This document shows positions 5,624-33,645 of a stretch of 64,000 nucleotides of DNA, piece by piece. A program made the translations under genes and the position numbers. Source of the DNA: an uncultured Spirochaetota bacterium (GTDB lineage: Bacteria > Spirochaetota > Brevinematia > Brevinematales > JAOACQ01); NCBI GenBank assembly GCA_963768055.1, contig CAVYGN010000002.1:1824112-1888111 (forward strand), given 5' to 3'. The notes beneath the pieces are model-generated. The model searched no databases and was not told the origin of the DNA. It saw only the letters and a list, made by a program, of their open reading frames with translations. The first letter of the stretch is position 1, and every line of letters begins with the position of its first letter.

Positions 5624-7060
5624 GTGTCTCAAAGATTGATAGTATTTTTTGCATTAATTTTTATATTCTGCAAGTCCTTCGGCGACTTTTTGAATATTAC
5701 GGAGATTGATAATTCCGATTTGCTGTTCAGCCAGAAAATCAAGGTTTATGTAAGCGTTCTTGATGATGAGGGGAAACCGGTAAATCGAATATCGTCAAAT
5801 GATTTCAGGGTTTACGAATCATCCCGGCCCGGTGTAAACGATCATAAACCGGCAATCATTACCGGGTTTATTCCCGAAGCTAATATTGAAAACGGGGTCA
5901 GTTTTTTGCTTCTACTCGATAACTCAGGCAGCATGTATAATGATATCAATGATAAAGAGACTGATGACCCGGGCAAAACCAGAATCGCCAATGCGAAAGA
6001 AGCGGTCTTGAATTTTTTAAACAGCATGGAAAATCCGAAAGACAAGGCCGGGATAGCGTCCTTTAACAGCTTCTATACCCTCTATTGCGGTCCCTTAAAA
6101 GACAAATCAAGGGTTGAAAATTATCTCGATGAAATAAAAAAACCGAAGGGCGACGAAGGGTGGACTGAAATTTATTCGAGCCTGTTTCTTGCCGCGGATG
6201 ATTTTAAACAGATTTCAGGAAGAAAAGTTATAATCATCCTGTCAGACGGTGAAAATATGCCGTATTATAAAAATACGGGTAAATTGCAGAAGGATTTCGG
6301 AAAAAGGTTGTTTACATACCAGGATGACATTGGAAAATACCTGCATGAATGTGTAACCGTATTTGTGATAAACTACGGTAAACCTGAAGAAATAAAGGAT
6401 AGCGGATTAAAAATAATAGCCCGGGAAACCGGGGGGTCGGTATTCGATGCTTCAAATGCCGATGAATTGAAAAGCGTTTATTCAGTCATCAGGAACAGAA
6501 TACTTAACGAATATTTAATCACCTACAAAGCGGGAATGGAACCTTCCGATAAAAAATATCTGCGGGTAGAACTGGAAACTACAAACGGCAATATAAATTC
6601 GGCCAGGTTTTATTACTCCAGCCTTATTTTTGGCGTTCCTGCCGGAAATTTTACGCCTATTTTATTGGCGCCTATAATATTGGCAATAATTTTACTATGG
6701 ATCCTGTCCATGATCAAGTTTAAAAACAGGAATAAAAAACCATTGCTCGAAGTCCTGGACGCCCCGATGAGGACTGTCATAAACAGGACCCTGGCCCTGA
6801 CAAAAAATGAGACGGTAATTGGAGCTTCCCCAAAGGCTGATATGACAATTCCCGGCAAGCATGAGGAGGACAGGGAATACGCGACGATAATTTATGACGA
6901 GAAAACTAAAATTTATGCCGTTAAGAGTAAAGATGAAATCATGGTAAACAATAAGCCGGTCAGGACCAAGGTGCTTGAATCGGGAGATGTTATCAACGCC
7001 GGAGGTGTTTCAATCGTCTTCGATTCCGGCGATTCTGGCGGGGAAAAGAAAGATCATTGA
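5624..7060 (+). CDS. VWA domain protein with TM helix and C-terminal FHA-like domain
   Basis: Signal peptide, MIDAS DNSGSM, LSDGE, ETGG; C-terminal VIG...VNN...GDVI. Confidence 0.85.
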   Translation: MSQRLIVFFALIFIFCKSFGDFLNITEIDNSDLLFSQKIKVYVSVLDDEGKPVNRISSNDFRVYESSRPGVNDHKPAIITGFIPEANIENGVSFLLLLDNSGSMYNDINDKETDDPGKTRIANAKEAVLNFLNSMENPKDKAGIASFNSFYTLYCGPLKDKSRVENYLDEIKKPKGDEGWTEIYSSLFLAADDFKQISGRKVIIILSDGENMPYYKNTGKLQKDFGKRLFTYQDDIGKYLHECVTVFVINYGKPEEIKDSGLKIIARETGGSVFDASNADELKSVYSVIRNRILNEYLITYKAGMEPSDKKYLRVELETTNGNINSARFYYSSLIFGVPAGNFTPILLAPIILAIILLWILSMIKFKNRNKKPLLEVLDAPMRTVINRTLALTKNETVIGASPKADMTIPGKHEEDREYATIIYDEKTKIYAVKSKDEIMVNNKPVRTKVLESGDVINAGGVSIVFDSGDSGGEKKDH

Positions 7061-7818
7061 TCCTCTTTAAATTTACGGCCTTCAAAGTAGCCTGTTTTTA
7101 AGGATTTAATATTTTCGATCATATTCTCTAAAATATCGAAACCTGAGCCTATCTCGGCTCTTGAATGAGCGTCAGAACCCGTCGTTATTATCTGTCCGCC
7201 TGCAAGGGAATATCCGGTGAGGATGTAAATTCCCGGCATCGGTTCTTCAATGCCTTTTCTCAGGGTGGAAGTATTCAATTCGAGAGCTATGCCGTTTTTT
7301 TTCATCTTTTCAAGCACTTCCCCCTCGATCTTACCATAAAAATTTTCTCCCAGGTATCTTTTCGGAAAATCGAAATGCGCGATAACGTCGAAACCGCCGA
7401 ATTCGACCGACTTTAATAGCTCAATAAAGTACATTTCAAATATTTGATCTTTGGTATATAGCCTTTCAAGATCATTTTCGCCGACAAAATGGTTGCCGAT
7501 CCAGTGAACCGCGCCCAAAATCATGTCAAAATCCAATTTAAGAACTTTCTCGAATTCTTTCGGATGAAGGTGCGGTTCTCCGACTTCAACGCCCTTCAGA
7601 ACCTTTAAACCGGGGCTATACTCCCGCCTGGCCCTGTCGATTAATTTTGAATAATTATCAAAGTCGAAACCTTCAATTCCATTGGCAAGGTCAAGGTGTT
7701 CTGTAAAACATATTATTTTTATATTTTTTTTAACGGCTTCACAGCACATATCCGGGATAGGATCGGCGCCGTCTTTTGAGATTGTCGAGTGGACATGAAG
7801 GTCCATCCTTACCGGCAT
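7054..7818 (-). CDS. PHP-family phosphatase (HisJ/HisK-like histidinol phosphatase)
   Basis: DLHVHS, TEH, AHFD and GSDAH motifs. Confidence 0.85.
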   Translation of the reverse strand: MPVRMDLHVHSTISKDGADPIPDMCCEAVKKNIKIICFTEHLDLANGIEGFDFDNYSKLIDRARREYSPGLKVLKGVEVGEPHLHPKEFEKVLKLDFDMILGAVHWIGNHFVGENDLERLYTKDQIFEMYFIELLKSVEFGGFDVIAHFDFPKRYLGENFYGKIEGEVLEKMKKNGIALELNTSTLRKGIEEPMPGIYILTGYSLAGGQIITTGSDAHSRAEIGSGFDILENMIENIKSLKTGYFEGRKFKEDQ

Positions 7819-9288: not shown

Positions 9289-10090
9289 TCCTATCATTGG
9301 AGTTTTCAGCTGTCTTAACCGGTTTTCTTTTATAAAAATATTTTCCGGTAATTTCCTTTACATCGCTTGAATAAGCCAGGTAAACGGAAGTATCGGCCCC
9401 CTGTTCCGGTGCGGTTATGAAAGCTCCAAAAATACGCATCATTGCCCTGAAAATCTGATTTTTTGAATTGAGCCCGAAACCTGTTCTTACTACCCCCGGA
9501 TGCAGGGAATTGGAGTTTATTCCTAAGCCTTTTACACGTTCGGCCAGTTCAACCGAAAAAAGATTGACGCAGATCTTTGAGGCGCTGTAAGCATAAAAAC
9601 CCTTATAAGCGCTGACTTCGACCACCTTGCTTAAATCTATTTTTTTAAGAAACCTGTGAGCGTTGGAAGAAACATGTATTATCCTGGAGGGCGAACTCTT
9701 TTTTAAAAGATCGAGAAGGAGGTTTGTCAATAGAAAATGAGACAGATAATTTACGGCGAAAGTTATTTCGATCCCGTCCTTTGAAGACCTTTCGTCCATA
9801 AAAACACCTCCTGCATTATTTATAAGAACGTCAAGCCTGTCAAACCTTTCCCTGAATTCGGCAGCTATGCCTTTAACTTCTTTGAGAGAAGTAAGATCAC
9901 CCCTTATCCCCTCGACCTTTTTACTGCCGGTCCTGCCTTTTATCTCATTTACTACTCTATTGATTTTATTCTGGTCTCTTCCATGGATTATGACAGTCGC
10001 ACCCAGCCCTGCGAGAGCTTCTCCTGTGGATTTCCCTATGCCGTTTGTGGCTCCGGTTATTAAAACCACACTTTGCCTGATATCTTCCAT
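9233..10090 (-). CDS. SDR oxidoreductase (retinol dehydrogenase-like)
   Basis: TGATNGIG, NNAG, YSASK and HPGVVRT motifs. Confidence 0.92.
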   Translation of the reverse strand: MEDIRQSVVLITGATNGIGKSTGEALAGLGATVIIHGRDQNKINRVVNEIKGRTGSKKVEGIRGDLTSLKEVKGIAAEFRERFDRLDVLINNAGGVFMDERSSKDGIEITFAVNYLSHFLLTNLLLDLLKKSSPSRIIHVSSNAHRFLKKIDLSKVVEVSAYKGFYAYSASKICVNLFSVELAERVKGLGINSNSLHPGVVRTGFGLNSKNQIFRAMMRIFGAFITAPEQGADTSVYLAYSSDVKEITGKYFYKRKPVKTAENSNDRITGRKLWDLSEKLVGDYL

Positions 10091-10211
10091 ATACTCTCCT
10101 TATCAGAAAATTTCCCTTAATAATATTAGAATCTATTAATTTTTATCAGCAGCGTCAACAAGTTGCTTTTATTTTCATATAGCTATATATTTTTATTAGA
10201 GAGAAAAGATT

Positions 10212-10952
10212 ATGTATTTCAGGCTTATTTTAACGGCATTCTTACTCCTTGCCTGCGAAACAATGACGGCGGAGAATTCTTCGCTTATATTTCTTAACAG
10301 GATACTATCCGGTAATGAACTTAATTTTGATAAAAATATAAAACGTATTTCGGGCGGAAGGTTTCTTCTCGTTGACGATCCTGCCAATTATGCCATATAT
10401 GAGATGCTCGAAAAACATATAAGGGCCTTTCAGAAGGATATAGAAAACCAATCCGATCTCATTTCATATTACAATTACCAGGAAGCGGTGATGGGGAATA
10501 TGGTAGATATTCTGCAAAGGATCCGAGAGCTTTTATTGAAAAGGGACGATCCTGTATTAAACGACAGCGACAGAGGCATAATTGACAACGAGATAAGTCA
10601 GGATTATGACCAGATAATATTCGATTTGAAACAGTCGGAATTCAACGGTAAACATATATTTGAAGAATTGTTCGACAGCGGGGCGGTTAAAAGCCTTTTT
10701 ACCGGAAAAGATTATTTCAGGCTTGATAATGTCGACAAACTGATCGACTACTTCATCTACCAGAGAACATTCGCCGGGGCCCGGGCTGGCAGTCTTTCTC
10801 ATGAGATATCGGGCGAGAGGACTGCAAAAGAAAATATGACAAAATCCCAGAGTGTTAACGACACTGATATAGCCCGGGAAACATCGGAACTTACCCTTGA
10901 TCATTTAAAAATAATAGTGAATCTTCTTATGCTCCATGAATCAAAAAACTGA
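10212..10952 (+). CDS. Divergent flagellin-like protein with predicted lipoprotein signal peptide
   Basis: DDPAN, ILQRIREL, DSDR, EFNGK (flagellin N region); ENMT..., DTDIARE (flagellin C region); N-terminus MYFRLILTAFLLLAC. Confidence 0.75.
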   Translation: MYFRLILTAFLLLACETMTAENSSLIFLNRILSGNELNFDKNIKRISGGRFLLVDDPANYAIYEMLEKHIRAFQKDIENQSDLISYYNYQEAVMGNMVDILQRIRELLLKRDDPVLNDSDRGIIDNEISQDYDQIIFDLKQSEFNGKHIFEELFDSGAVKSLFTGKDYFRLDNVDKLIDYFIYQRTFAGARAGSLSHEISGERTAKENMTKSQSVNDTDIARETSELTLDHLKIIVNLLMLHESKN

Positions 10953-15729: not shown

Positions 15730-16992
15730 CTATGCATAAGATTGTTGGAGGCATTGGTTGCCATTTTCCTGGGCCCAGCAAATCCCGTCAAGGGATGCTG
15801 CGTTGTATTTATCCATGGATATATTCATCTCATTTAATATAGAGGCGACAGCGGAAAAATTATTCTCCTCGCTATTCTCAACAAGAAGAAGGAGCCTTCC
15901 GAGGATGTTTTTATGCTCGAGCAGGGCTTCGTTAATGTTCTGGCTTAAATTAAGTTCGGAAAGGATCTCTTTCAGGGGCATCTTGAACAGCGGTTCCATG
16001 AGAGAGAGCAAGCCTACCAGGTATGCTTCATCGACCATCGATTTGCCGATATCGGTCTTTGAATTTTTTAATAAGAGTTCCATCGTCTTCGCCCTTTCAA
16101 TGGCGGCGAATAACAGGGGATTGCCGTTCGATTTCTCTTTCATGTACGCGTATTCCATAAGGATAAGCCAGTTTAATAGTTGCCTGTGTCCGAGCAGAGC
16201 TATGGCCTGCCTTATAGACTCGATCTTGTGCCTGCTTCCTATGGCCGCCGAATTGATGAATTGCAGAAGATTAATCGTCATTTCAGGCCATTTTTTAAAT
16301 GATCTTTCCAGGTCTTCAATATCCGAGTCCTTATAGATAAGGCTGATCAATTCCATTATGGCAAGTTTCCGTGGATCGACGCCCCTGCCCTTTATTATCG
16401 TAGGCCTGGCGAAGAAATAACCCTGAAAGAGGGTAAAACCCAGGTCCTTATAATAGAAAAATTCCTCCATATCCTCGATCTTTTCGGCGAGGCATTCGAC
16501 AGGATAAGATTTAAACATCCTGAACTTTGAAGCGATCAATTCCTTCGAATTCTGCCTGACATCGACTTTTATATAAGCCACCTTTCCGAAAAGGGGTTCG
16601 AAGCGTTTTATAATATCCTCATTGAATACGAAATCGTCGAGAGCAAAAACGAACCCTTCCTGCTTCATGTTATCTATCATTTCAAGGAGTACCGGGTCTA
16701 TCCTGGTAGTTTCAAGTATCTCGAGGACAAAACGGTCTTTCTGCAGAGTTTTCAGAAGGTCTCTTTTTATTATTTCATCGTTTATATTAATAAATGCGAG
16801 CTTGTCTCCCATGAGCTTGGAGAAACTGATATTGTTCAAGGTATTTACAATAACCGTAGCTGTAGCCACAAGATCATCCGTGACCTTTGCAAAATTATTT
16901 TCATCCTTCCTGAAGAGTAACTCGAAACCGACGATATTCTGCGCACAGTCCAAAATTGGCTGTCTGCCCAATAATATATTGCCAGCGTTCAT
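15730..16992 (-). CDS. EAL + modified HD-GYP (HDOD) domain protein, YuxH-like
   Basis: RQPI..FELLFR, ALDDF, AEKIE and FQGYFF motifs, then HDOD region. Confidence 0.9.
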   Translation of the reverse strand: MNAGNILLGRQPILDCAQNIVGFELLFRKDENNFAKVTDDLVATATVIVNTLNNISFSKLMGDKLAFININDEIIKRDLLKTLQKDRFVLEILETTRIDPVLLEMIDNMKQEGFVFALDDFVFNEDIIKRFEPLFGKVAYIKVDVRQNSKELIASKFRMFKSYPVECLAEKIEDMEEFFYYKDLGFTLFQGYFFARPTIIKGRGVDPRKLAIMELISLIYKDSDIEDLERSFKKWPEMTINLLQFINSAAIGSRHKIESIRQAIALLGHRQLLNWLILMEYAYMKEKSNGNPLLFAAIERAKTMELLLKNSKTDIGKSMVDEAYLVGLLSLMEPLFKMPLKEILSELNLSQNINEALLEHKNILGRLLLLVENSEENNFSAVASILNEMNISMDKYNAASLDGICWAQENGNQCLQQSYA

Positions 16993-17238
16993 AAGAAAGT
17001 AACCCGCCTCTTTTCAAGACTATTCTTGAATAGCAACAGAAATACATCAAAATCAACTCAACTAAATATAATTTAAGATATTAAAAATGGCAATAAAAGA
17101 GGGGAATAGAGATATGTTTATTCTTCACTTTAACTGAACTTATGCTGATTTGCAGTATTTTCCCTGTAATTTGTTTTTTTAATTATTAGTTTTTATAATG
17201 AGAGTTGGTCATTAGGAGCCTTTTTATATTTATAAGAC

Positions 17239-17310
17239 GGGGATGTAGCTCAGCGGGAGAGCATTGCGTTCGCAACGCAGGGGCCGGGGGTTCAAATCCC
17301 CTCATCTCCA
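17239..17310 (+). tRNA. tRNA-Ala (anticodon CGC), CCA not encoded; island integration site
   Basis: Cloverleaf GGGGATG...CATCTCC-A with G3:U70, anticodon loop TT-CGC-AA, T arm GGTTCAAATCC. Confidence 0.95.
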
Positions 17311-17421: not shown

Positions 17422-18483
17422 ATGGGGCTCATTAAAAGATCGAACGGAATATATTATGTTCGAATCAAGAGAAGCGGAATCCTGACAATGTTCAGCCTGA
17501 GAACCAGAAACAACCATCTGGCAAACGATCTGTATCAAGCATATCTGGTTCAACAATTGAGATCAAATATCGCTCCTTCGGCTTTTAAAAAAGTAAAAGC
17601 AGCTGGCTCACGACAGGAAAAAAAGAAAGATACTCCTTATACAAATCAGTTAAAACATACGTTTGAATCCATTTGGAACGAATATTTCCAGGCAAAGATG
17701 GCAAGTAAACTCTCCAAATCGCAGTTGGGTATAAAAAAACAAGTTTTTCGTCATTTGAAGGAATTTAAACTTTACAAGGTAGAAGGGATAAACCAAGCTT
17801 TTCTAAATCAACTTTTCATATCATATAGAAGCAAATATACTGAAGACACAATCCGAAAATTCGTCGCGGAATTAAAATGCTTCCTGAATTATTGCATCAA
17901 AAACGATGTATTTTCAGACAGGGAATATCACAAACTTACTTTTCCTAAAGTAATCACAAAGGTGAGAGACACATTGATTAAAAGGGATGACATAGAGAAG
18001 ATCCTTGAATACCTTAGACAAAATGATGAAGATTTCTATACTTATTTTTTAAATCTTTTAAACCTTTACGGCCGACCAAATGAAATTCCAGGTCTTCAGA
18101 AAAAGAATTTCAACTTCAATGAAAAGCTTTGTAAAGTGTATATGAATAAAACCCGGAAAGAGAAAACAGTTGTTTTGACGGACCAGAACTTTATAAACTA
18201 TATGAGGCAAATGACTGATTGTCTAAACGATGATGATTATATACTTAAAGGCCATAACCAGGGGCCAAGTTACTATCCAAATAAATTCAGGCGGCTTAAA
18301 GAAAAACTCAACTTGAATAGGAACTACTTCTTGTACAGTGTAAGGCACACTGTTTCAAGTTTATTATATGAAAAAACAAAGGATATAAAGTTTCTTACAA
18401 ACCAGTTGGGAAATGAAGAGAAAATTCTTATTAAACACTACATTAACACCAATCTTGAGGATTTTAAAAAATATTTAGTTTGA
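17422..18483 (+). CDS. Tyrosine recombinase/integrase Int1
   Basis: N-terminal beta arm-binding-like segment; GRPNE (R), NKT (K), YSVRH, LGN, KHY. Confidence 0.9.
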   Translation: MGLIKRSNGIYYVRIKRSGILTMFSLRTRNNHLANDLYQAYLVQQLRSNIAPSAFKKVKAAGSRQEKKKDTPYTNQLKHTFESIWNEYFQAKMASKLSKSQLGIKKQVFRHLKEFKLYKVEGINQAFLNQLFISYRSKYTEDTIRKFVAELKCFLNYCIKNDVFSDREYHKLTFPKVITKVRDTLIKRDDIEKILEYLRQNDEDFYTYFLNLLNLYGRPNEIPGLQKKNFNFNEKLCKVYMNKTRKEKTVVLTDQNFINYMRQMTDCLNDDDYILKGHNQGPSYYPNKFRRLKEKLNLNRNYFLYSVRHTVSSLLYEKTKDIKFLTNQLGNEEKILIKHYINTNLEDFKKYLV

Positions 18484-18720: not shown

Positions 18721-19800
18721 ATGGAAAAGAAAAGAAGATATTCTAGAAGGTCACATCATAGAAATTTATTTCTTAGAAATGGAATCTATCAATTTAAAAA
18801 AATGATTAATGGACAATTGATTCGGTTTTCATTATGGACTAATAATTTATCTTTGGCCGAAAACTTACGGGATATTATTCTTAAGGAACGATTTTCTGAG
18901 TTTAGGAAATTAAAAGATAATAAATCACTTAAAAAAGCTCAAGAATTAGATCTAATTAATAAAAGAACCGAAAATTTGGAACAGGTTTGGAATGAATATT
19001 TTAAATTTAAAGAATTGGAAAACTTATCAACTTCACAAATGAATATTAAAAGAAAAGTTTTCCAAGACTTTTTGAAAAATCAAATTACATCAATTGATGA
19101 TTTTACTCAGTCGAATATTAATAATCTTATGAGTATTTATAAGAAAAAATACCATGATGACAGTACAAAAAAATATGTTTCGGAAATCAAATGTTTTCTA
19201 AATTTTTGTGTCAGAAGTGGTTACTTTACTCGTGAAAACTATGACCGATTATCCTGGCCAAAATTACGAACAAAAGTAAATTCAACTGTAATCTCAAAAT
19301 CTGATCTCGAAAAGATTTTTAAATATACCAAACAAAATGATAAGGATTTCTTTTTTTATCTGCAAGCGCTTTATTTTTTGAGTTGTAGGCCTTCAGAGGT
19401 TTTGGCACTTAAAAATGAAAATTTTGATTTTTCAATGTGGACTTGTAAAATCTGGATGAATAAAACAAAAAAGTTCAAAAATGTTCTTATTGTTAATAAT
19501 GAGTTTTGCCAACTACTTATAGAATATTTTCAGAATAAAACTAATGATTATCTCTGTGAACGTCATGAATCAAAGGAATATTATAGTAAAAAGTTTAAAC
19601 AGTTGAAAATTCAATTGGGATTAAATTCAAGTTACACCCTTTACAGTTTTCGGAAAAGCTCAGCTTCGCATTTATTTGAAAATACAAAAGATATAAAGTT
19701 TGTATCAAATCAATTGGGAGATAACCAAGCTATGGCAATGAAACACTATATTCATTTTGATACAAATCAATATTTGCAAAAGTATCAAAATAGTCTTTGA
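18721..19800 (+). CDS. Tyrosine recombinase/integrase Int2, paralogue of Int1
   Basis: CRPSE, NKT, YSFRK, LGD, KHY; shared blocks with Int1 (KCFLN, TKDIKF, NQLG). Confidence 0.9.
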   Translation: MEKKRRYSRRSHHRNLFLRNGIYQFKKMINGQLIRFSLWTNNLSLAENLRDIILKERFSEFRKLKDNKSLKKAQELDLINKRTENLEQVWNEYFKFKELENLSTSQMNIKRKVFQDFLKNQITSIDDFTQSNINNLMSIYKKKYHDDSTKKYVSEIKCFLNFCVRSGYFTRENYDRLSWPKLRTKVNSTVISKSDLEKIFKYTKQNDKDFFFYLQALYFLSCRPSEVLALKNENFDFSMWTCKIWMNKTKKFKNVLIVNNEFCQLLIEYFQNKTNDYLCERHESKEYYSKKFKQLKIQLGLNSSYTLYSFRKSSASHLFENTKDIKFVSNQLGDNQAMAMKHYIHFDTNQYLQKYQNSL

Positions 19801-23017: not shown

Positions 23018-23683
23018 TTGTTCTCTGAAGGAATAACTTTATATCACTCCGAGCATTCAGATGAACTAATCAATAAAATTCAACAGAATATTCCTGAAAT
23101 AGTGGTTTTGGATGTTATTAATGAAGATTTTACTGGCATATTTGAACTTGTAAAACAAATAAAGAATCATTCATCTGATGAAATGAAAAAGACAGCGATA
23201 ATTCTTCTTATAGGCTCTATCGACAAACAAACAATTACTTCCGCAATTCAGGCCGGAGTAATTGGATTTATTAAAAGCAATGCTGCAGTAGATTTTGTTT
23301 ACAAATATATTATGGATACTTATCAAAAGGTCCGGGGGGTTCCCCCTGAAAGAAAATATGTGAGGATTAAAATCGAATCTAATGACAGGATCGGCATCAA
23401 ATTCCGGTCTCCTGTGAATTCACGGCTTATTATCGGTCAAATTAAAGATATCAGCTTCGGCGATATCGCTGTAGAATTAGCCGGTACATTCCCCCCTGAA
23501 TCAATAGCCAACGGATCGGAGATAAAGAATATGCAGTTCATTTTAGAAGGAAAGGATGTGTTTATCGATGGAATTGTGGTTGTTTATCAAAATAAATTTT
23601 GCGCATTTAGATTTAAAGACATGACGACAGAAATAAAAGAAATCATTTCTCAGTATGTTTTTAAAAAAATATGCTGTATATAA
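23018..23683 (+). CDS. Receiver + PilZ domain protein, 5' end probably degraded
   Basis: VVLD receiver motif, RKYVR and DISFGD PilZ-like motifs; no clean start. Confidence 0.7.
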   Translation: MFSEGITLYHSEHSDELINKIQQNIPEIVVLDVINEDFTGIFELVKQIKNHSSDEMKKTAIILLIGSIDKQTITSAIQAGVIGFIKSNAAVDFVYKYIMDTYQKVRGVPPERKYVRIKIESNDRIGIKFRSPVNSRLIIGQIKDISFGDIAVELAGTFPPESIANGSEIKNMQFILEGKDVFIDGIVVVYQNKFCAFRFKDMTTEIKEIISQYVFKKICCI

Positions 23684-24122
23684 GAAAATTTGCCTATTAA
23701 GTTAAATCAGTAACTTGTTTAAATCTTGTTAGTTTATGCTTACGATATTTTGCATTTCCCCAAAAATTTCAGATTCGAGTAATATTTCCAAATCAAAATC
23801 TGAATGATTAAAATTAAAATTCTGATCTATAAAATAATAGAGAGGAGTAATAATCGTATACCATGGCTATGAAAGAGCCGTTCGTGGGGTATTTATTTAA
23901 AAAAGATATTTATCTGAAATTACTGAAAGAAGTCTACGAAGGCTGTGATGAATATGGTTGATGATTGGTTTTTAATATGATAGTACTCCGGAGGGGGATT
24001 CAAAATCTGAGAATAAATGAAAAAAGTCCACAAAGGAAGTGATACTTGGGTTCGTGGGGAGGTTAAAAAAAAGTATTTTTAAGAATCTGAAATTTTCATT
24101 CAAATTTATAAATAAATGTAAA

Positions 24123-24204
24123 ATAAGTAGCGAAAAACCTTTGATTTTCTGAATGACTTGTTTTATAATAATATAAGTAGCGAAAATAGAATATTTCGCT
24201 ATTT
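24123..24204 (+). promoter_or_regulatory. Recombinase promoter with flanking binding sites
   Basis: TTGATT-17-TATAAT (24141-24169); ATAAGTAGCGAAAA twice; AAGTAGCGAAA-8bp-TTTCGCTATTT inverted repeat at 24175-24204. Confidence 0.7.
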
Positions 24205-24214
24205 AGAGGTTTTT

Positions 24215-24859
24215 ATGGAATTAACAGTTTTTCTTGAAGATGAGGAAATTGAACGGCTATTAAGAGCGTTTAATCTTAGAATGAGAAACGGCATTATGAT
24301 GAATGCCATTATCCGGTTAATGGGCTATTGTGGGCTTCGAGCTTCAGAATGTATCGGGCATGAAAAGAGAGCAGGGGGAGGTTTACGGATTCAGGACGTA
24401 AACCTGAACACAGGTCAAATTACCATAAGAGATTCAAAAGATACAAGAGGTAAAGATCAACGACGTAGGAAGACGAAGAATGGCCGGATCGTATTTGCTG
24501 GTGGTGAGACCCTCGAGGCTCTAAGAAAATGGTGGACAGATATTCGGGCAATACAATCAATGCTGGAGCCTTATGATGATGATTATTTTTTTGTGAATAG
24601 AAATGGAATGAAGATTTCCAATGCTCAGCTTCGGAAAACCATCCGAATTTATGCCGAGAAAGCAGGGATCCCGCCTGAGAAACGGCACGCTCATGCCCTG
24701 AGACATAGTGCCGGCACCCGTTTTTACAGGGAAACGAAGGATCTGTTAACTGTCCAGAAAATTCTCGGTCATTCATCACCAACAGATACAGCACGTTATG
24801 CTCATGTCACCGGAGCTGATGTTGAAGAAATTATGCGGAGAGTCCAGAAAAAGAATTGA
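24215..24859 (+). CDS. Small tyrosine recombinase, catalytic domain only (FimB/ResD-like size)
   Basis: GLRASE, KTKNG, HALRH, LGH and RYAH catalytic motifs; GAGG RBS before ATG 24215. Confidence 0.92.
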   Translation: MELTVFLEDEEIERLLRAFNLRMRNGIMMNAIIRLMGYCGLRASECIGHEKRAGGGLRIQDVNLNTGQITIRDSKDTRGKDQRRRKTKNGRIVFAGGETLEALRKWWTDIRAIQSMLEPYDDDYFFVNRNGMKISNAQLRKTIRIYAEKAGIPPEKRHAHALRHSAGTRFYRETKDLLTVQKILGHSSPTDTARYAHVTGADVEEIMRRVQKKN

Positions 24860-25664
24860 CTTTTCATATCACCATAATATTTTCCTATGAAAATTACTAA
24901 ACTGGTTTCTTTTAGGTTAATTCTCAAAATGAAACGGTGCATGGGGGCAGTAAGACTATAACTATGACTTCACCACTGTGAAGTATGGACAGGAAAGCAG
25001 CTGCTGAAGTTCGTAAAAGTTCAGCCTCTATTCCCGCATTGGTGCCATGGAATTTTGCCAACATCCCAAATTGTATCTTACCATTGGATTTCCAGTCGTC
25101 GCCTCGTCGTCATTCATCCCAAGAATTCCCGATCTATGTAGACTGGAGCTTAAATCGCTCCTGATAACTTTAATGAGTGTCGTTTTTATGGCTCTGCCCG
25201 CAAACAGATTGTTTTGTATAAGTTCCTGGTCCTTACACGCAGGCACTCTATGTCCGGTAGTACTTTGTCGTCATACCGCTAACAGGACTGAAAAAGCTAA
25301 TCAACCTGTAGATTATTGATTATGTTAGGGGTCGATCCAATGATCAGATGTCCCTCGGTAATACGAATCTTGCTATGGAAGTGGATGAACCTACATTTAG
25401 GTGTCGACATACCCCCCGCCAGTAATTGATATTATTGCGGATTTCCTCCGCCTGGTCGATGGTATAATTCTGTCCCAGAATAAGTGCATCGTCTGCTGTT
25501 ATCCATGCAGACAGCTTTGCCTGGGCCTGTTCTGTTCTTGTGTTATTGCGGACATACGTGCAGGTTTGTTAGATAAGAAAATTAATTGAATTGATTAAAA
25601 ATATGATTTTTTAAATCTCCTGTAATTTTTAAGGACAAAGGGAGATAACAGGAGAAAAGAATTT

Positions 25665-26714
25665 TTAAGGATCAAGATATTTTTCAGCATCTTTATCAAA
25701 CCATTCCGCTTCATGTAAATATTCTTTTCCAATTTCTTTTAAAAATTTAGATGTTTCAGGCCAATTAACTTCCAATAATTTAGAGTTATTGAAGTAGGCA
25801 TCAGCTAATTCTTTTTCTTGACGGCCACCTTCCTGTAGGCTCCTTGTTGTGGCTCCACGTGAATTATATTTCCCAATTGATAAACCAGTTTTAATTCTTT
25901 CATAACCTTTCTCAATAAATTCTCTTGCAATTAAACATGGCCAAATTTTATCATTTGGAGGTGGAACTCGGGAAAGTATTTCACCAATTTTATCCTCGGA
26001 TATACTTTTTCTATTATTTATTTCAGCATAAGTTATTGCTTTATCACACCAAGCTCTAAGATAATCATCCCTTGTTTTCTCTTCCTTTATGTTGAATCCA
26101 GGATAAGTATGCCAATTTTTTAATACATTAAATGCAAATTGGGCATTTAAAACGGAACTTTCATTAACTTCAGTTTCTGCTTTATCCTCACCTTCAGGTT
26201 TATAAATATTACATATTAATTCTACAAAACTTTCCGGATTATCATTTATGTCCTGTGAAATGAACTTTGGTTGGACTATTGAATATTCAAGTAAAGGAAG
26301 ATAGGCTATTTCCATATGAATTACCCTTTCAGTTGGCAAATCAGTAAACTTATATAAAGCATTAAAAATATTCTCAATATAATGAGTACTTAACGAATCA
26401 CTGAGTATAATATTCCGTTTATCTTCTGGTATGGTTAATACTTTTTCTAATAAAGATAAATAATCATCAAAAGCTGCAAATTTTTCAATATCTATATTAC
26501 CACTGCCTAAAATTACAATTAACAAATCAAACCTTTCATATTTAATAAGATATTCTTTTACCTTGATAAATATTTCATTTGATTTAATCCATTGTGGGAA
26601 AAAATAATGTAATTTGTTCCAATATCTTTCTTGAACTAAGTGATACTTTTCAAGAAGAGCAAGAATTCTATTATCAAAATCCAGATGGAATATTATATCT
26701 GTTGCAGTTACATG
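25665..26714 (-). pseudogene. C-terminal fragment of a large island protein, truncated by IS3
   Basis: ORF runs into the IS end; C-terminal GKYNSRG...EGGRQE.ELA...WPETS motif recalls large proteins of defence-rich islands. Confidence 0.65.
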
Positions 26715-26777: not shown

Positions 26778-27074
26778 ATGGCGAAGAAAGGTTTCACACC
26801 GGAACAGATTATTCAGAAACTCAGGGAAGTCGAAGTTAACCAGTCAAAGGGCATGAGCATGGCCGAATGTATCAGGCAAATCGAAGTAACAGAACAAACC
26901 TATTACCGCTGGAGGAAAGAATACGGCGGTATGAGGACAGACCAGGCCAAAAGGCTCAATGAACTGGAAAAGGAAAATAGCAGGCTCAAAAGGATAGTAG
27001 CTGATAAAGAGCTTGACATACAGATACTCAAAGAATTCATGAGGGTTGAATCAAAAAACTCCTCAGCCCGGTAA
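26778..27074 (+). CDS. IS3 transposase OrfA
   Basis: HTH segment TEQTYYRWRKEYGGM and leucine zipper. Confidence 0.9.
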   Translation: MAKKGFTPEQIIQKLREVEVNQSKGMSMAECIRQIEVTEQTYYRWRKEYGGMRTDQAKRLNELEKENSRLKRIVADKELDIQILKEFMRVESKNSSAR

Positions 27075-27268
27075 AGAGAAATTTAACAGTCATTGAGGTT
27101 TGTAATAATCTCGAAATATCTCAACGCCGGGCTTGCCTGACAATCGATCTCTGGAGAAGTTCAGTAAGATACCAACCAAAGAAAACAGATGAAGAAGAAA
27201 GGCTGACGGAAGACATTATCAAACTGGCGACGTCTTACGGCCGCTATGGATATAAAAGGATCACATCG

Positions 27269-27904
27269 ATGCTCAGGGAAGAAGGATGGAGGGTCAATCA
27301 CAAGAGGGTTCTAAGGATATGGCGCAAAGAGGGGCTAAAAGTCCCCAAAAGGCATCCGAAGAGAAAAAGACTGTGGCTTAACGATGAATCCTGTGTAAGG
27401 TTAAGGGCCGAACATCGCAATCATGTATGGAGTTATGACTTTGTCCAGGACAGGACAAGCGACGGCAGGCCGATAAAAATATTGACCCTTGTTGATGAAT
27501 ATACCAGGGAAGCGCTGGCTGTGGATGTAGAAAGGCAAATAAAGTATCCCTATTTAATAGACAGATTATCGGAACTGTTTATTGAAAAGGGAACGCCTGA
27601 ATATATCCGGAGCGACAACGGGTCTGAATTCATCGCCAAACCGCTCCGGAAATGGCTTAAAAGTGTGAACGTAAAAACCCTCTACATAGAACCTGGAAGC
27701 CCCTGGGAAAACGGATATGTTGAATCGTTCAACGGAAGACTCAGGGATGAATTTCTTAACGGAGAACAATTCGATACGCTTTTTGAAGCTAAAGTATTGA
27801 CCGAGAGATGGAGGAGGGAGTATAATACAGTAAGACCTCACAGCTCACTGGGTTACCGTCCACCGGCCCCGGAGGCTATTTTTTTGGCTGCAAAAGCTTC
27901 TTAA
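27269..27904 (+). CDS. IS3 transposase OrfB (DDE), joined to OrfA by frameshift
   Basis: WSYDFV, SDNGSEF and NGYVESFNG motifs. Confidence 0.92.
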   Translation: MLREEGWRVNHKRVLRIWRKEGLKVPKRHPKRKRLWLNDESCVRLRAEHRNHVWSYDFVQDRTSDGRPIKILTLVDEYTREALAVDVERQIKYPYLIDRLSELFIEKGTPEYIRSDNGSEFIAKPLRKWLKSVNVKTLYIEPGSPWENGYVESFNGRLRDEFLNGEQFDTLFEAKVLTERWRREYNTVRPHSSLGYRPPAPEAIFLAAKAS

Positions 27905-27943: not shown

Positions 27944-29335
27944 CATATAGAAAGCGCTGGACAACTATTTAAACATAGTGAAATGAAATACTTACCTAAT
28001 TTATCTAATAATATAAAATGTGGCAATTCTCTTATAGCCAGCGATTTTTATGAAAGCAAGGACAGCCTTTTTGATAAAGAAACCTTAAGATTAATTAATG
28101 CATTTGATTGGGTTGGCTCCAACGGTTTTAAAAAAATCATGGATGAAGGTGGTTTTGATTGTGTGATAGGGAATCCTCCTTGGGGTAGTTTTATTTCAGA
28201 AGAAGAAAAAAAATATTTAATTAAAAAATTTAAGAATAAAAAAGGAGAAGCGGAATCACATTTATATTTTATTGAAAAAGGTATGATATTATTAAATCAA
28301 AGTGGTTTGTTAGGCTATATAACACCTAATACTTGGTTAACAGTTATAAATTCAGCGGAAATAAGAAATTATTTACTTCAAAATTATTCAATTAAACATA
28401 TTCGAGAGTTATCAAAATATATATTCAAAGATGCTCCTGATATAGTTCCTATTCTTGTTTTTATTTCAAAGGATAAGAGCAATAAAACATGTGATGCACA
28501 ATTATCAACAGAAATAAAAATTCAAGAATCTAATTTCAAACTATCCTTTATTTCTAATAAAATTAACCAAGAAACCTGGCTTAATAGTAATATGAGTATT
28601 ATTAACTTAAGATTATCTAAAAGTGTTAAGAGTATTTTAAATAAATGTAATGAAATAAAAAATCATTTAATTGATCTTACAGATATTTTATATGGAATAA
28701 AAACAGGAGATAATGAAAAATATTTATCATTTCAACCTTTTGAAAATAATTGTGTAAAAGCTTTGAAGACAGGTGAAATTAAGCGTTATTATTTAGAATG
28801 GAAAGGTTTATATCTTAAATGGAATCCCAATCTTGCAGGCTATAGACAAACCCCTGTTGATATTCCAAAGATTATTATTCAATATATAAGAAAAATAAGC
28901 ATGCCAAGAAGAATTATTGCTGCTTTAGATGAAGATGGGGTTTATTATCCGTTGAATAATTACTCTTATGTAATATTAAAACCGAATCAAGTCTTTTCAT
29001 TAAAGTACATACTCGGAATTCTTAATTCTAATCTCATAAATTATTATTTCTCAAATACATTTATTGATTACAATATTAAACCTACTTATCTTCAGTTATT
29101 GCCAATAGTAAATATTGATTTAAATGATAAAATACTCTTGAATACTTATTCAACAATAATTTCTCTTGTCGATCAAATGATTGCCACACAAAAAAGTCTT
29201 CAAATTGCTCAAATCGAACAGGATAAGGTATTATTAAACCAACAATTTGAAATTCTTAATAAAAAAATAGATAAATTGGTTTATGAACTTTATGGTCTAA
29301 CAGAAGAGGAAATTAAGGTGGTGGAGGGGGAATGA
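27944..29335 (+). pseudogene. 3' half of a type IIG (Eco57I/TaqI-C-like) restriction-modification gene, truncated by IS3
   Basis: NIKCGNSL, VIGNPPW (motif IV), C-terminal IDKLVYELYGLTEEEI; motif I absent; frame open from the IS end. Confidence 0.85.
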
Positions 29336-30652: not shown

Positions 30653-30681
30653 TTGATAAAAGCGCCAAGAGGGGATAGAAT
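30653..30681 (+). promoter_or_regulatory. Sigma70-like promoter in junction repeat (copies at 31780-31808, 32367-32395, 33568-33596)
   Basis: TTGATA-17bp-TAGAAT in all four copies. Confidence 0.8.
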
Positions 30682-31736: not shown

Positions 31737-31832
31737 TCTATTGCTCTTCCCCCCTCTGCTTTGCCAGACTCTAATAATTTTGATAAAAGCGCCAGGAGGG
31801 GATAGAATAAAAGAAATAAATGAAGGAATATT

Positions 31833-32318: not shown

Positions 32319-32428
32319 AATATCTCTTTTCCTTCCCCCTTCTATCCGTCATACTCTATTAAAATTTTGATAAATCTTTATGATGGGATTAGAATAATGG
32401 TGAATGTCATGGAATAGGAGATGGCAAG

Positions 32429-33505: not shown

Positions 33506-33645
33506 TTTATTCCACCCTTTCACTCCCTTTGCCTTCCCCTTTCCAGCTTGCCATACTCTCTTGAATTTTGATAAAAGCGCCCGGAGAGGATAGAATAAAG
33601 GAAAATTTCACAATGAGATTTTAAATAGATACTGAGGAGATTTTA

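Follow-up and report, generated by a model that had tools for sequence, protein, structure and literature searches.

A stretch of 64,000 nucleotides from an uncultured Spirochaetota bacterium of the order Brevinematales (contig CAVYGN010000002.1, positions 1,824,112 to 1,888,111; hereafter "the window", with its genome designated G000) codes for a small tyrosine recombinase whose gene directly follows three copies of one half-site, which are arranged around its own promoter. The gene is intact and, judged from its translation, encodes a tyrosine recombinase whose catalytic domain is Xer-like. The enzyme class and the kind of site are both well known; what is found here is a rare variant that lacks a core-binding domain. 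The module, i.e. the gene together with its regulatory region, most likely served a former mobile element in resolution or excision and was left stranded. More specifically, we see about an even chance for the following reading: a site of the TnpI/IRS type, composed of core and accessory half-site and used for autoregulation, that belongs to a rare recombinase subfamily devoid of a core-binding domain and now lies without a partner site in a low-GC defence island interrupted by insertion sequences. The module has no detectable link to the repeats that precede genes further downstream ("family-1 junctions"), and an integron-like interpretation is refuted.

The recombinase and its site

The 214-residue protein matches the Pfam family Phage_integrase (PF00589) with residues 6-199, which correspond to profile positions 2-169 of 172 (E 5.5e-28). 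With 98.3 bits against a gathering cut-off of 27.1, it belongs to the tyrosine recombinase superfamily. As the match begins at residue 6 and at profile position 2, the recombinase starts where the catalytic domain starts. SAM-like and core-binding families (PF02899, PF13495) were not found in it by a Pfam scan, which does detect such families in both longer integrases of the window (353 aa, 17422-18483; 359 aa, 18721-19800). The catalytic set (R42, K75, H160, R163, H186, Y195) was aligned to the motifs of XerA and XerD, and the six positions are invariant or nearly so in an alignment of 27 short relatives. By sequence, the recombinase is nearest, among solved structures, to XerA (5hxy; query 3-206 corresponds to chain 135-309, E 9.4e-14) and XerH, matching their catalytic domains. 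The same two proteins are ranked at the top by Foldseek (XerA, E 5.9e-12, TM 0.72; XerH, E 3.6e-11), starting from an AlphaFold2 model that was built on the 27-sequence alignment (predicted local distance difference test, pLDDT, 89.0; predicted TM score, pTM, 0.85). None of the PADLOC families matches the recombinase. The integrity of the gene, the fold and the complete set of catalytic residues are established; any recombination by the protein is presumed.

Two short insertions fall into gaps in XerA, XerH and XerD. The first (GHEKRAGGG) follows the Arg-I helix, the second (DTRGKDQRRRKTKNG) follows Lys75, and both are common to the close subfamily. The GHEKRxGGG motif and the basic hairpin insertion have no place in most of the distant relatives in the 27-sequence alignment (the three plasmid proteins described below are not part of it). 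The second insertion is basic and sits in the beta2-beta3 hairpin (residues about 76-90); the extended hairpin (residues about 71-90) is also the low-confidence part of the AlphaFold2 model. This extended basic hairpin is located beside the catalytic lysine and may do the job of the core-binding domain, which is used by nearly all studied tyrosine recombinases. An earlier note, made from the letters of this DNA, had described a protein of 214 residues with a full R-K-H-R-H-Y set, without an N-terminal binding domain and with short insertions (HEKRAGGG and DTRGKDQRRR). All of this is borne out, by the translation of the open reading frame (ORF) and the alignments, by the lack of a SAM-like or core-binding match, and by the gaps in the three Xer proteins, respectively.

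Close homologues are rare. In a HMMER search that covered 1.84 billion representatives of all lengths, only three proteins were found at E <=1e-30. All eight matches at E <=1e-20 have at most 228 residues, so that the missing core-binding domain is a property of the subfamily and not the result of a truncation. The close homologues are P0002 (66% identity; its source names a Brevinematales metagenome-assembled genome), P0003 and P0004. At E <=1e-20, the recombinase occurs in two of 401 genomes sampled from the phylum, G000 itself and the same-genus genome G004, which are two of the five genomes from the genus. Scans of genome contigs with the protein and with a 4-sequence alignment resulted in 130 and 56 pattern matches, respectively, none of which was confirmed. 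From a metagenome scan, 79 loci were kept; the metagenome contig L001 is the only close relative among these, most others being ordinary Xer-like genes of ~300 aa. Among the close homologues, DNA is available for two loci, L001 and the full copy from G004.

The regulatory region contains the sequence AAGTAGCGAAA at 24125 and at 24175, and a near-complement on the minus strand at 24194. The latter two are the arms of a dyad with the spacer ATAGAATA, which is readable equally as 11-8-11 or as 12-6-12 (AAGTAGCGAAAA-TAGAAT-ATTTCGCTATTT). The first copy, the accessory half-site, is located 5 nt upstream of the -35 box; its start and that of the left core arm are 50 bp apart. These two copies are embedded in an 18-nt direct repeat (24119-24136 and 24169-24186) with 94% identity. 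The dyad begins 5 nt after the -10 box and stops 1 nt before the GAGG of the ribosome-binding site (Table 1). Both the dyad between -10 box and ribosome-binding site and the extra half-site upstream of the -35 box had been proposed in the earlier note and were found in these positions. Shuffling (100 times per locus) produced a half-site triple of at least 12 nt twice with the window sequence and never with that of L001 or G004. As so few shuffles reach it, the half-site triple exceeds chance.

This arrangement is conserved. L001 and G004 share the plan TGTAAAATAAGTxxCGAAAA, TTTACA-17-TATACT, dyad GTACCGAA(A)...TTTCGGTAC, GAGG and ATG, and the layout of half-site, -35, -10, dyad, GAGG and ATG is found at about the same offsets in all three subfamily loci. 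Counted from the ATG, the triple is positioned at -91/-41/-21 in the window, at -92/-42/-22 in L001 and at -92/-42/-26 in the full copy from G004, and the start-to-start distance between direct repeat and left arm is 50 bp in each case. The core of the half-site differs: it is AGCG in all three copies of the window, ACCG in all three copies of G004, and GCCG (once) plus ACCG (twice) in L001. Because the half-sites change together while the plan is kept, we predict that they are a real protein-binding site. The upstream copy, which is not transcribed, co-varies too, and this is better explained by protein recognition than by an RNA hairpin alone. The spacer is conserved neither in sequence nor in length (ATAGAATA in the window versus ATACATTAT and ATACACTCT in the orthologues).

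The limits of the module were obtained by blastn. Positions 24114-24830 of the window align to local positions 16286-16999 of G004, and G004 16283-17018 aligns to L001 2672-3407 with 92% identity over 736 bp, the flanks being without similarity. The L001-G004 alignment extends from 14 nt upstream of the accessory half-site to 4 nt short of the stop codon. Over the three loci, similarity extends from ~10-14 nt upstream of the accessory half-site to the stop codon or near it, and the flanks are unrelated. The orthologues have methylase-Mrr fusions, HEPN genes and ankyrin genes as neighbours.

A core-binding domain is likewise missing from a second subfamily (188-216 aa), which is 33-34% identical to the query. 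One of its loci, L004, follows the same plan, with ATATAATACG, ATATACTACG and an inverted CGTAGTATAA at -84/-44/-18 (0 of 100 shuffles). Another locus of this subfamily, the metagenome contig L003, codes for two small recombinases (5991-6554 and 9989-10555), which are 92.6% identical to each other, and contains two 3'-terminal gene fragments (at about 13000 and about 15100) that begin at the same codon. All of these copies and fragments are co-oriented, and each is ahead of cargo (methylase-Mrr, MBL-fold, NUDIX, HNH, Ltp lipoprotein). Relatives of 189-221 aa, with about 30% identity (29-32%) over nearly the whole query, are encoded on plasmids and on a phage-like plasmid. These are Salinibacter pSR35, a Clostridium perfringens plasmid and an Acinetobacter baylyi plasmid, where the gene is beside tet(X3). 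The C. perfringens and Salinibacter records have repeated motifs ahead of the gene; none of the three plasmid records passed the strict test for three half-sites. Many proteins of 530-870 aa (P0078, P0079, P0082-P0087 and others) match the query in two separate stretches and may be fusions with two recombinase catalytic domains.

From the layout of the region, it is plausible that the site is a combined operator and resolution-type crossover site. The half-site of 11-12 bp, present in triplicate at the promoter of the gene, would be recognised by the protein: as an inverted pair that forms the core between -10 box and ribosome-binding site, and as one direct copy 50 bp upstream, before the -35 box. 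Autoregulation would result from protomers that flank the promoter and cover the transcription start, thereby repressing the gene. The inverted core, with its asymmetric spacer of 6-8 bp, would serve as the strand-exchange site, and the accessory direct repeat would favour deletion or resolution when two copies are in direct repetition, as known from TnpI/IRS of Tn4430 and Tn5401.

Further copies, family-1 junctions and the island

In G004, one full and three 5'-truncated recombinase copies are found within 15 kb and in one orientation (G004:C3, about 262,300-277,200; Table 1). They are interleaved with small cargo genes, which code for ankyrin-repeat and FGE-sulfatase proteins. The three truncated copies start at the identical nucleotide (codon 28), and this in two different upstream contexts: two are located behind an identical element of ~190 bp that resembles a miniature inverted-repeat transposable element (MITE) and has GGGGTTACCTTGGAATT ends, the third behind unrelated DNA. 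Of the truncated copies, one still has an intact ORF of 183 aa. Only one of the four copies, the full one, retains the site. A partial inverted repeat at the codon-28 breakpoint was considered and dropped, as it is not conserved in the window gene. We also rejected, as a second site in G004, a dyad that resembles the G004 core (AGTACCAAAAA-N7-TTTTTGGTACT; C2:355323-355351, L102 3324-3352). It is probably a terminator, as it lies between convergent genes and is followed by a T-run. A stretch of about 70 nt just upstream of this dyad is enclosed by a perfect inverted repeat of 15 bp (CAGACTGTGTGAAAA).

The family-1 repeat is conserved over at least 37 nt, with the core TTGATA-17-TAGAAT (10/12 at 30653, 31780, 32367 and 33568). 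This unit occurs 23 times in the genome (19 copies on contig C1, 581,789-744,889; three in the window; one elsewhere on C2), and always just before the start codon of a different gene. About 50 nt upstream of the family-1 unit, there is a motif rich in C and T (similar to CCCTCTGCTTTGCCTGCC; the "family-2" repeat). The earlier note had reported that the 8-mer of the spacer, ATAGAATA, also occurs in three junctions and had suggested that the site could be an attI-like partner of these, while allowing that the match could be chance. The three occurrences exist (30675, 31802 and 33590), and so does the reason for caution. The 8-mer is found nine times in the window, with 6.4 occurrences expected, and nine or more are reached in 22 of 100 shuffles. 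In the junctions, it constitutes the -10 region of the promoter-like motif and carries the -10 hexamer. An arm of the TAGCGAAA type was not found in the junctions.

The earlier note had also proposed to check if homologues of the recombinase co-occur with junction arrays. In the five genomes of the genus, the two are distributed independently: G000 has both; G004 has only the recombinase, with no junction motif even when up to three mismatches are allowed; G001 and G003 have only junctions (four and five motifs, respectively) and no recombinase; and G002 has neither. A homologue without junctions in G004 and the converse in G001 and G003 contradict the suggested partnership. Two mobile elements were considered as the source of the junction repeat. 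It does not match the end of an IS4-like element (three copies in G000), and it has no obvious likeness, by eye, to the ends of the IS1380-type element from G004 (PF13701).

The recombinase gene is located in a low-GC stretch at about 18-46 kb of the window, an island of about 28 kb. It starts after tRNA-Ala(CGC) (17239-17310) and the two full-length integrases (353 and 359 aa, ending at 19800), which are in tandem and diverged. A repeat of the tRNA-Ala 3' end with at least 13 nt, as an island boundary, was not found in the window. The island contains IS3 and IS21 copies, a methylase fragment of the type IIG kind, a PDC-S15/FRG protein and a Ppl-like ATPase, and the neighbours of the module are a response-regulator/PilZ gene, a truncated large gene and IS3. 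These surroundings are mobile/defence-island DNA in decay. A Tn3-type transposase was not found among the 34 island proteins scanned, and a close paralog of the recombinase gene was not found elsewhere in the genome.

Upstream of the module, a segment is bounded by a perfect inverted repeat (Table 1). Shuffling rarely produces a perfect inverted repeat of 14 nt (8 of 1000 trials with the intergenic region, 5 of 300 with 2.3 kb). Within the segment are two short repeats that contain GTTCGTGGGG (23880 and 24050). The 334-bp unit that includes the repeat was considered as a MITE family and rejected, being unique in the genome.

Table 1. Features of the module, its surroundings and the G004 copies. 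Positions refer to the window unless a locus is named.
Feature	Position	Strand	Remarks
Whole conserved module (regulatory region and gene)	24114..24859	+	blastn limits versus the G004 full copy and, through it, L001
Accessory direct-repeat half-site TAAAATAAGTAGCGAAAA	24119..24136	+	core AAGTAGCGAAA at 24125-24135; position conserved, sequence co-varying in L001 and G004
Sigma-70-type promoter TTGATT-17-TATAAT	24141..24169	+	10/12; best promoter match in 23600-25700
Dyad core AAGTAGCGAAA-ATAGAATA-TTTCGCTATTT	24175..24204	+	inverted arms; covers the likely transcription start and the 5' untranslated region
Shine-Dalgarno sequence GAGG	24206..24209	+	5 nt before ATG; conserved in L001 and G004
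Recombinase gene	24215..24859	+	214-aa tyrosine recombinase, catalytic domain only; ATG at 24215, stop codon at 24857-24859
Perfect 14-bp inverted repeat AAAATTTCAGATTC	23763-23776 / 24083-24096		bounds 306 bp between the response-regulator/PilZ gene and the module
ORF of 369 aa	25665-26774	-	matches only positions 941-1251 of a 1258-position phage family (C-terminal quarter); looks truncated
IS3 copy	26778-27904		flanked by both gene fragments
Methylase fragment	27983-29335	+	matches the middle of type IIG enzymes; looks truncated
TTGATA-17-TAGAAT units	30653-30681, 31780-31808, 32367-32395, 33568-33596
G004 recombinase copies (one full, three truncated)	L088 12338-12889, 16390-17022, 19625-20184; L089 about 6664-7216

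Competing explanations

As an alternative to an attI-like site, the earlier note had suggested that the site is simply a res site. The architecture supports this part, with an inverted core and an accessory half-site over the recombinase's own promoter, as in TnpI/IRS; on the other side, neither a product nor a second site was seen. Several observations weigh against a resolution module. When up to five changes in 30 nt are allowed, the only match in the 3.69-Mb genome is the site itself, and a genome-wide dyad search (one change per 8-nt arm, spacer of 6-12 nt) resulted only in this site and two GC-rich non-sites. With one site in the genome, there is no visible substrate pair for resolution, and a single module copy with a single site has no intramolecular partner in this genome. 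No recombination product, circle or inversion was seen in the public sequencing data, three DNA runs of one study with small shares of this DNA, which gave only short, identical contigs at a depth of 2-4 and no joints; RNA runs that contain it are not listed. Neither a transposase nor a replication gene accompanies the module. TnpI, the recombinase of the system used for comparison, has a core-binding domain and is larger than the 214-aa protein. The arm-to-arm span of the dyad is 28 nt in the window and 29 nt in both orthologues, a difference of 1 bp. In a strict test for the half-site triple, six of seven more distant loci failed: the triple was not found in L002, L003b, L099, L100 and L101, and the one in L003a was not above shuffles (12 of 100). 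Finally, the dyad also folds as a stable RNA hairpin in the 5' untranslated region (-12.7 kcal/mol in the window, -10.8 to -14.6 kcal/mol overall), followed by a T-run, and a consensus scan marks it as terminator-like. Part of the dyad conservation could therefore serve the RNA.

Some of these observations would fit if the site is an operator only, with the half-sites and/or the hairpin just autoregulating the gene and the true crossover site being elsewhere or lost from the genome. We consider this possible but rather unlikely. It is consistent with the position of the site around and over the promoter in each of the three orthologous loci, with a dyad that folds as a 5'-terminal hairpin (z-scores -2.1 to -4.3), with a spacing that varies by 1 bp between orthologues, and with truncated G004 copies that break inside the gene, at codon 28, and not at the dyad. 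Tyrosine-recombinase folds can repress, and the SroF repressor of phage phi3T is among the fold matches (9rgl, E 3.1e-4). However, all catalytic residues are kept across the family, which is needless for a pure repressor, and inverted arms with an asymmetric spacer of 6-8 bp are the canonical core of a tyrosine recombinase. Moreover, according to excerpts from PMC7157771 and PMC2847244, one site does both jobs in TnpI/IRS. The truncated copies also bring up the idea that the 0.74-kb unit could move or accrete by itself, as a minimal element, with adjacent cargo brought along or captured by each unit. Repeated insertion would then create co-oriented rows of cargo, separated by full or identically 5'-truncated recombinase copies. 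This is the picture seen in G004 with its four co-oriented copies, three of them truncated at codon 28, and also in L003, where two full copies and two 3'-fragments with the same first codon are each placed before cargo. The 92% identity of L001 and G004 has sharp limits within unrelated flanks, and the window copy has the same limits. The shared start positions and these homology limits are the reason why we keep this explanation open, although we judge it improbable. Flanking direct repeats or hybrid sites were not seen at these loci, only one of four G004 copies keeps the site, and activity of insertion sequences and MITEs in such regions can yield the same mosaic. Also, the limits coincide with a functionally constrained unit, so that they may reflect selection, and the sample consists of three loci.

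Two further explanations involve other repeats of the window. A Fim-type DNA invertase could flip the 306-bp segment that is bounded by AAAATTTCAGATTC upstream of the module. The recombinase is small and lacks a core-binding domain, like the ~200-residue model NF007370 (which aligns to residues 6-203); the inverted repeat is rare in shuffles; and its right arm is only 27 nt from the accessory half-site. But NF007370 scores 39.6 bits with a cut-off of 221, the arms of the inverted repeat have no half-site of the TAGCGAAA type, and the copies in L001 and G004 are preceded by neither the segment nor its repeat. Two metagenome contigs that cross the left arm are, at low depth, in the reference orientation only. 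All in all, such an invertase is very unlikely. Least credible of all, and close to dismissed, is the attI-like partner, i.e. a recombinase that exchanges its own site with the family-1 junctions and thus builds cassette-like gene rows. The common 8-mer would fit, and the genes bounded by junctions are small and co-oriented. However, the 8-mer occurs at chance frequency and is the -10 box of TTGATA-17-TAGAAT in the junctions, which themselves are devoid of arms; the spacer is not conserved in the orthologues; and most junction copies (19/23) are located on the other contig, far from the gene. The integron-integrase model reaches 50.5 bits with a cut-off of 265, and the independent distribution in the genus already contradicts this reading.

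If the preferred reading of a TnpI/IRS-like module holds, it would be a very compact, self-regulating recombinase-plus-site unit, with a site of about 100 bp and a gene of 645 bp, in which DNA recognition is managed without a core-binding domain. This would be relevant to the question of how tyrosine recombinases clamp DNA, and to small orthogonal recombination tools. If, instead, the unit is itself mobile, it would constitute a cassette-building system that is distinct from integrons, as every cassette would have its own recombinase. The cassette-like gene rows of this genome are not tied to the recombinase and thus provide no basis for the idea of a new integron-like system.

Comparison with known systems

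Similar in size are the plasmid and phage-plasmid genes of 189-221 aa that are annotated as "tyrosine-type recombinase/integrase" and align over nearly the full length. They differ in having only about 29-32% identity and in three records where the strict three-half-site pattern was not detected. As in IntI/attI, a tyrosine recombinase is found beside its own site and a promoter, with co-oriented small genes nearby. Unlike IntI, the protein scores far below the cut-offs of the integron models (TIGR02249, 50.5 versus 265; NF011946, 31.6 versus 435), and only the C-terminal third aligns to IntI4. Unlike in an integron, the repeats between genes are promoter-like rather than attC-like and are distributed independently of the recombinase.

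FimB and FimE resemble the recombinase in having about 200 residues, with a catalytic domain that spans nearly the whole protein (the 200 positions of NF007370 correspond to residues 6-203). Unlike these, it stays below the cut-offs of both models (NF007371, 36.3 versus 222; for NF007370, see above), and there is no invertible element bounded by the recombinase's own half-sites; the nearby inverted-repeat segment is without half-sites.

XerA/dif, XerH/difH and XerS/difSL share with the module a palindromic site with arms of ~11 bp, and the catalytic domain is nearest to that of XerA and XerH by sequence and by fold. In the case of XerS, the site adjoins the gene. In contrast to Xer proteins, a core-binding domain is lacking (the protein begins at XerA residue 135), and the NCBIfam scores are below the cut-offs: XerA_Arch, 101.9 versus 220; XerC, 94.5 versus 335.15; XerD, 84.1 versus 329.6; XerS, 57 versus 267. 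Also, the gene is not a conserved housekeeping gene, as illustrated by its presence in two of five genus genomes and two of 401 phylum genomes at E <=1e-20. This rarity, together with the location in a low-GC island, argues that it is not a housekeeping system for dimer resolution.

TnpI/IRS differs in three respects. It has two accessory repeats (DR1 and DR2), compared to one in the module; TnpA transposase and terminal repeats were not found near the module; and the recombinase described here is devoid of a core-binding domain. The likeness to TnpI/IRS is drawn from the layout of the site. As far as described in excerpts from PMC2847244, the IR1-IR2 core of the IRS and its accessory motifs DR1 and DR2 share a 9-bp sequence, and the accessory motifs impose resolution selectivity. 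For Tn5401, an excerpt from PMC7157771 describes promoters inside the res site that are modulated by TnpI binding, and the promoter of the recombinase gene is likewise inside the site. As in TnpI/IRS, the site is directly upstream of the recombinase gene, and, in line with the part of the published description cited here, the inverted core (24175-24204) and the direct accessory repeat (24119-24136) share one recognition sequence in all three loci.

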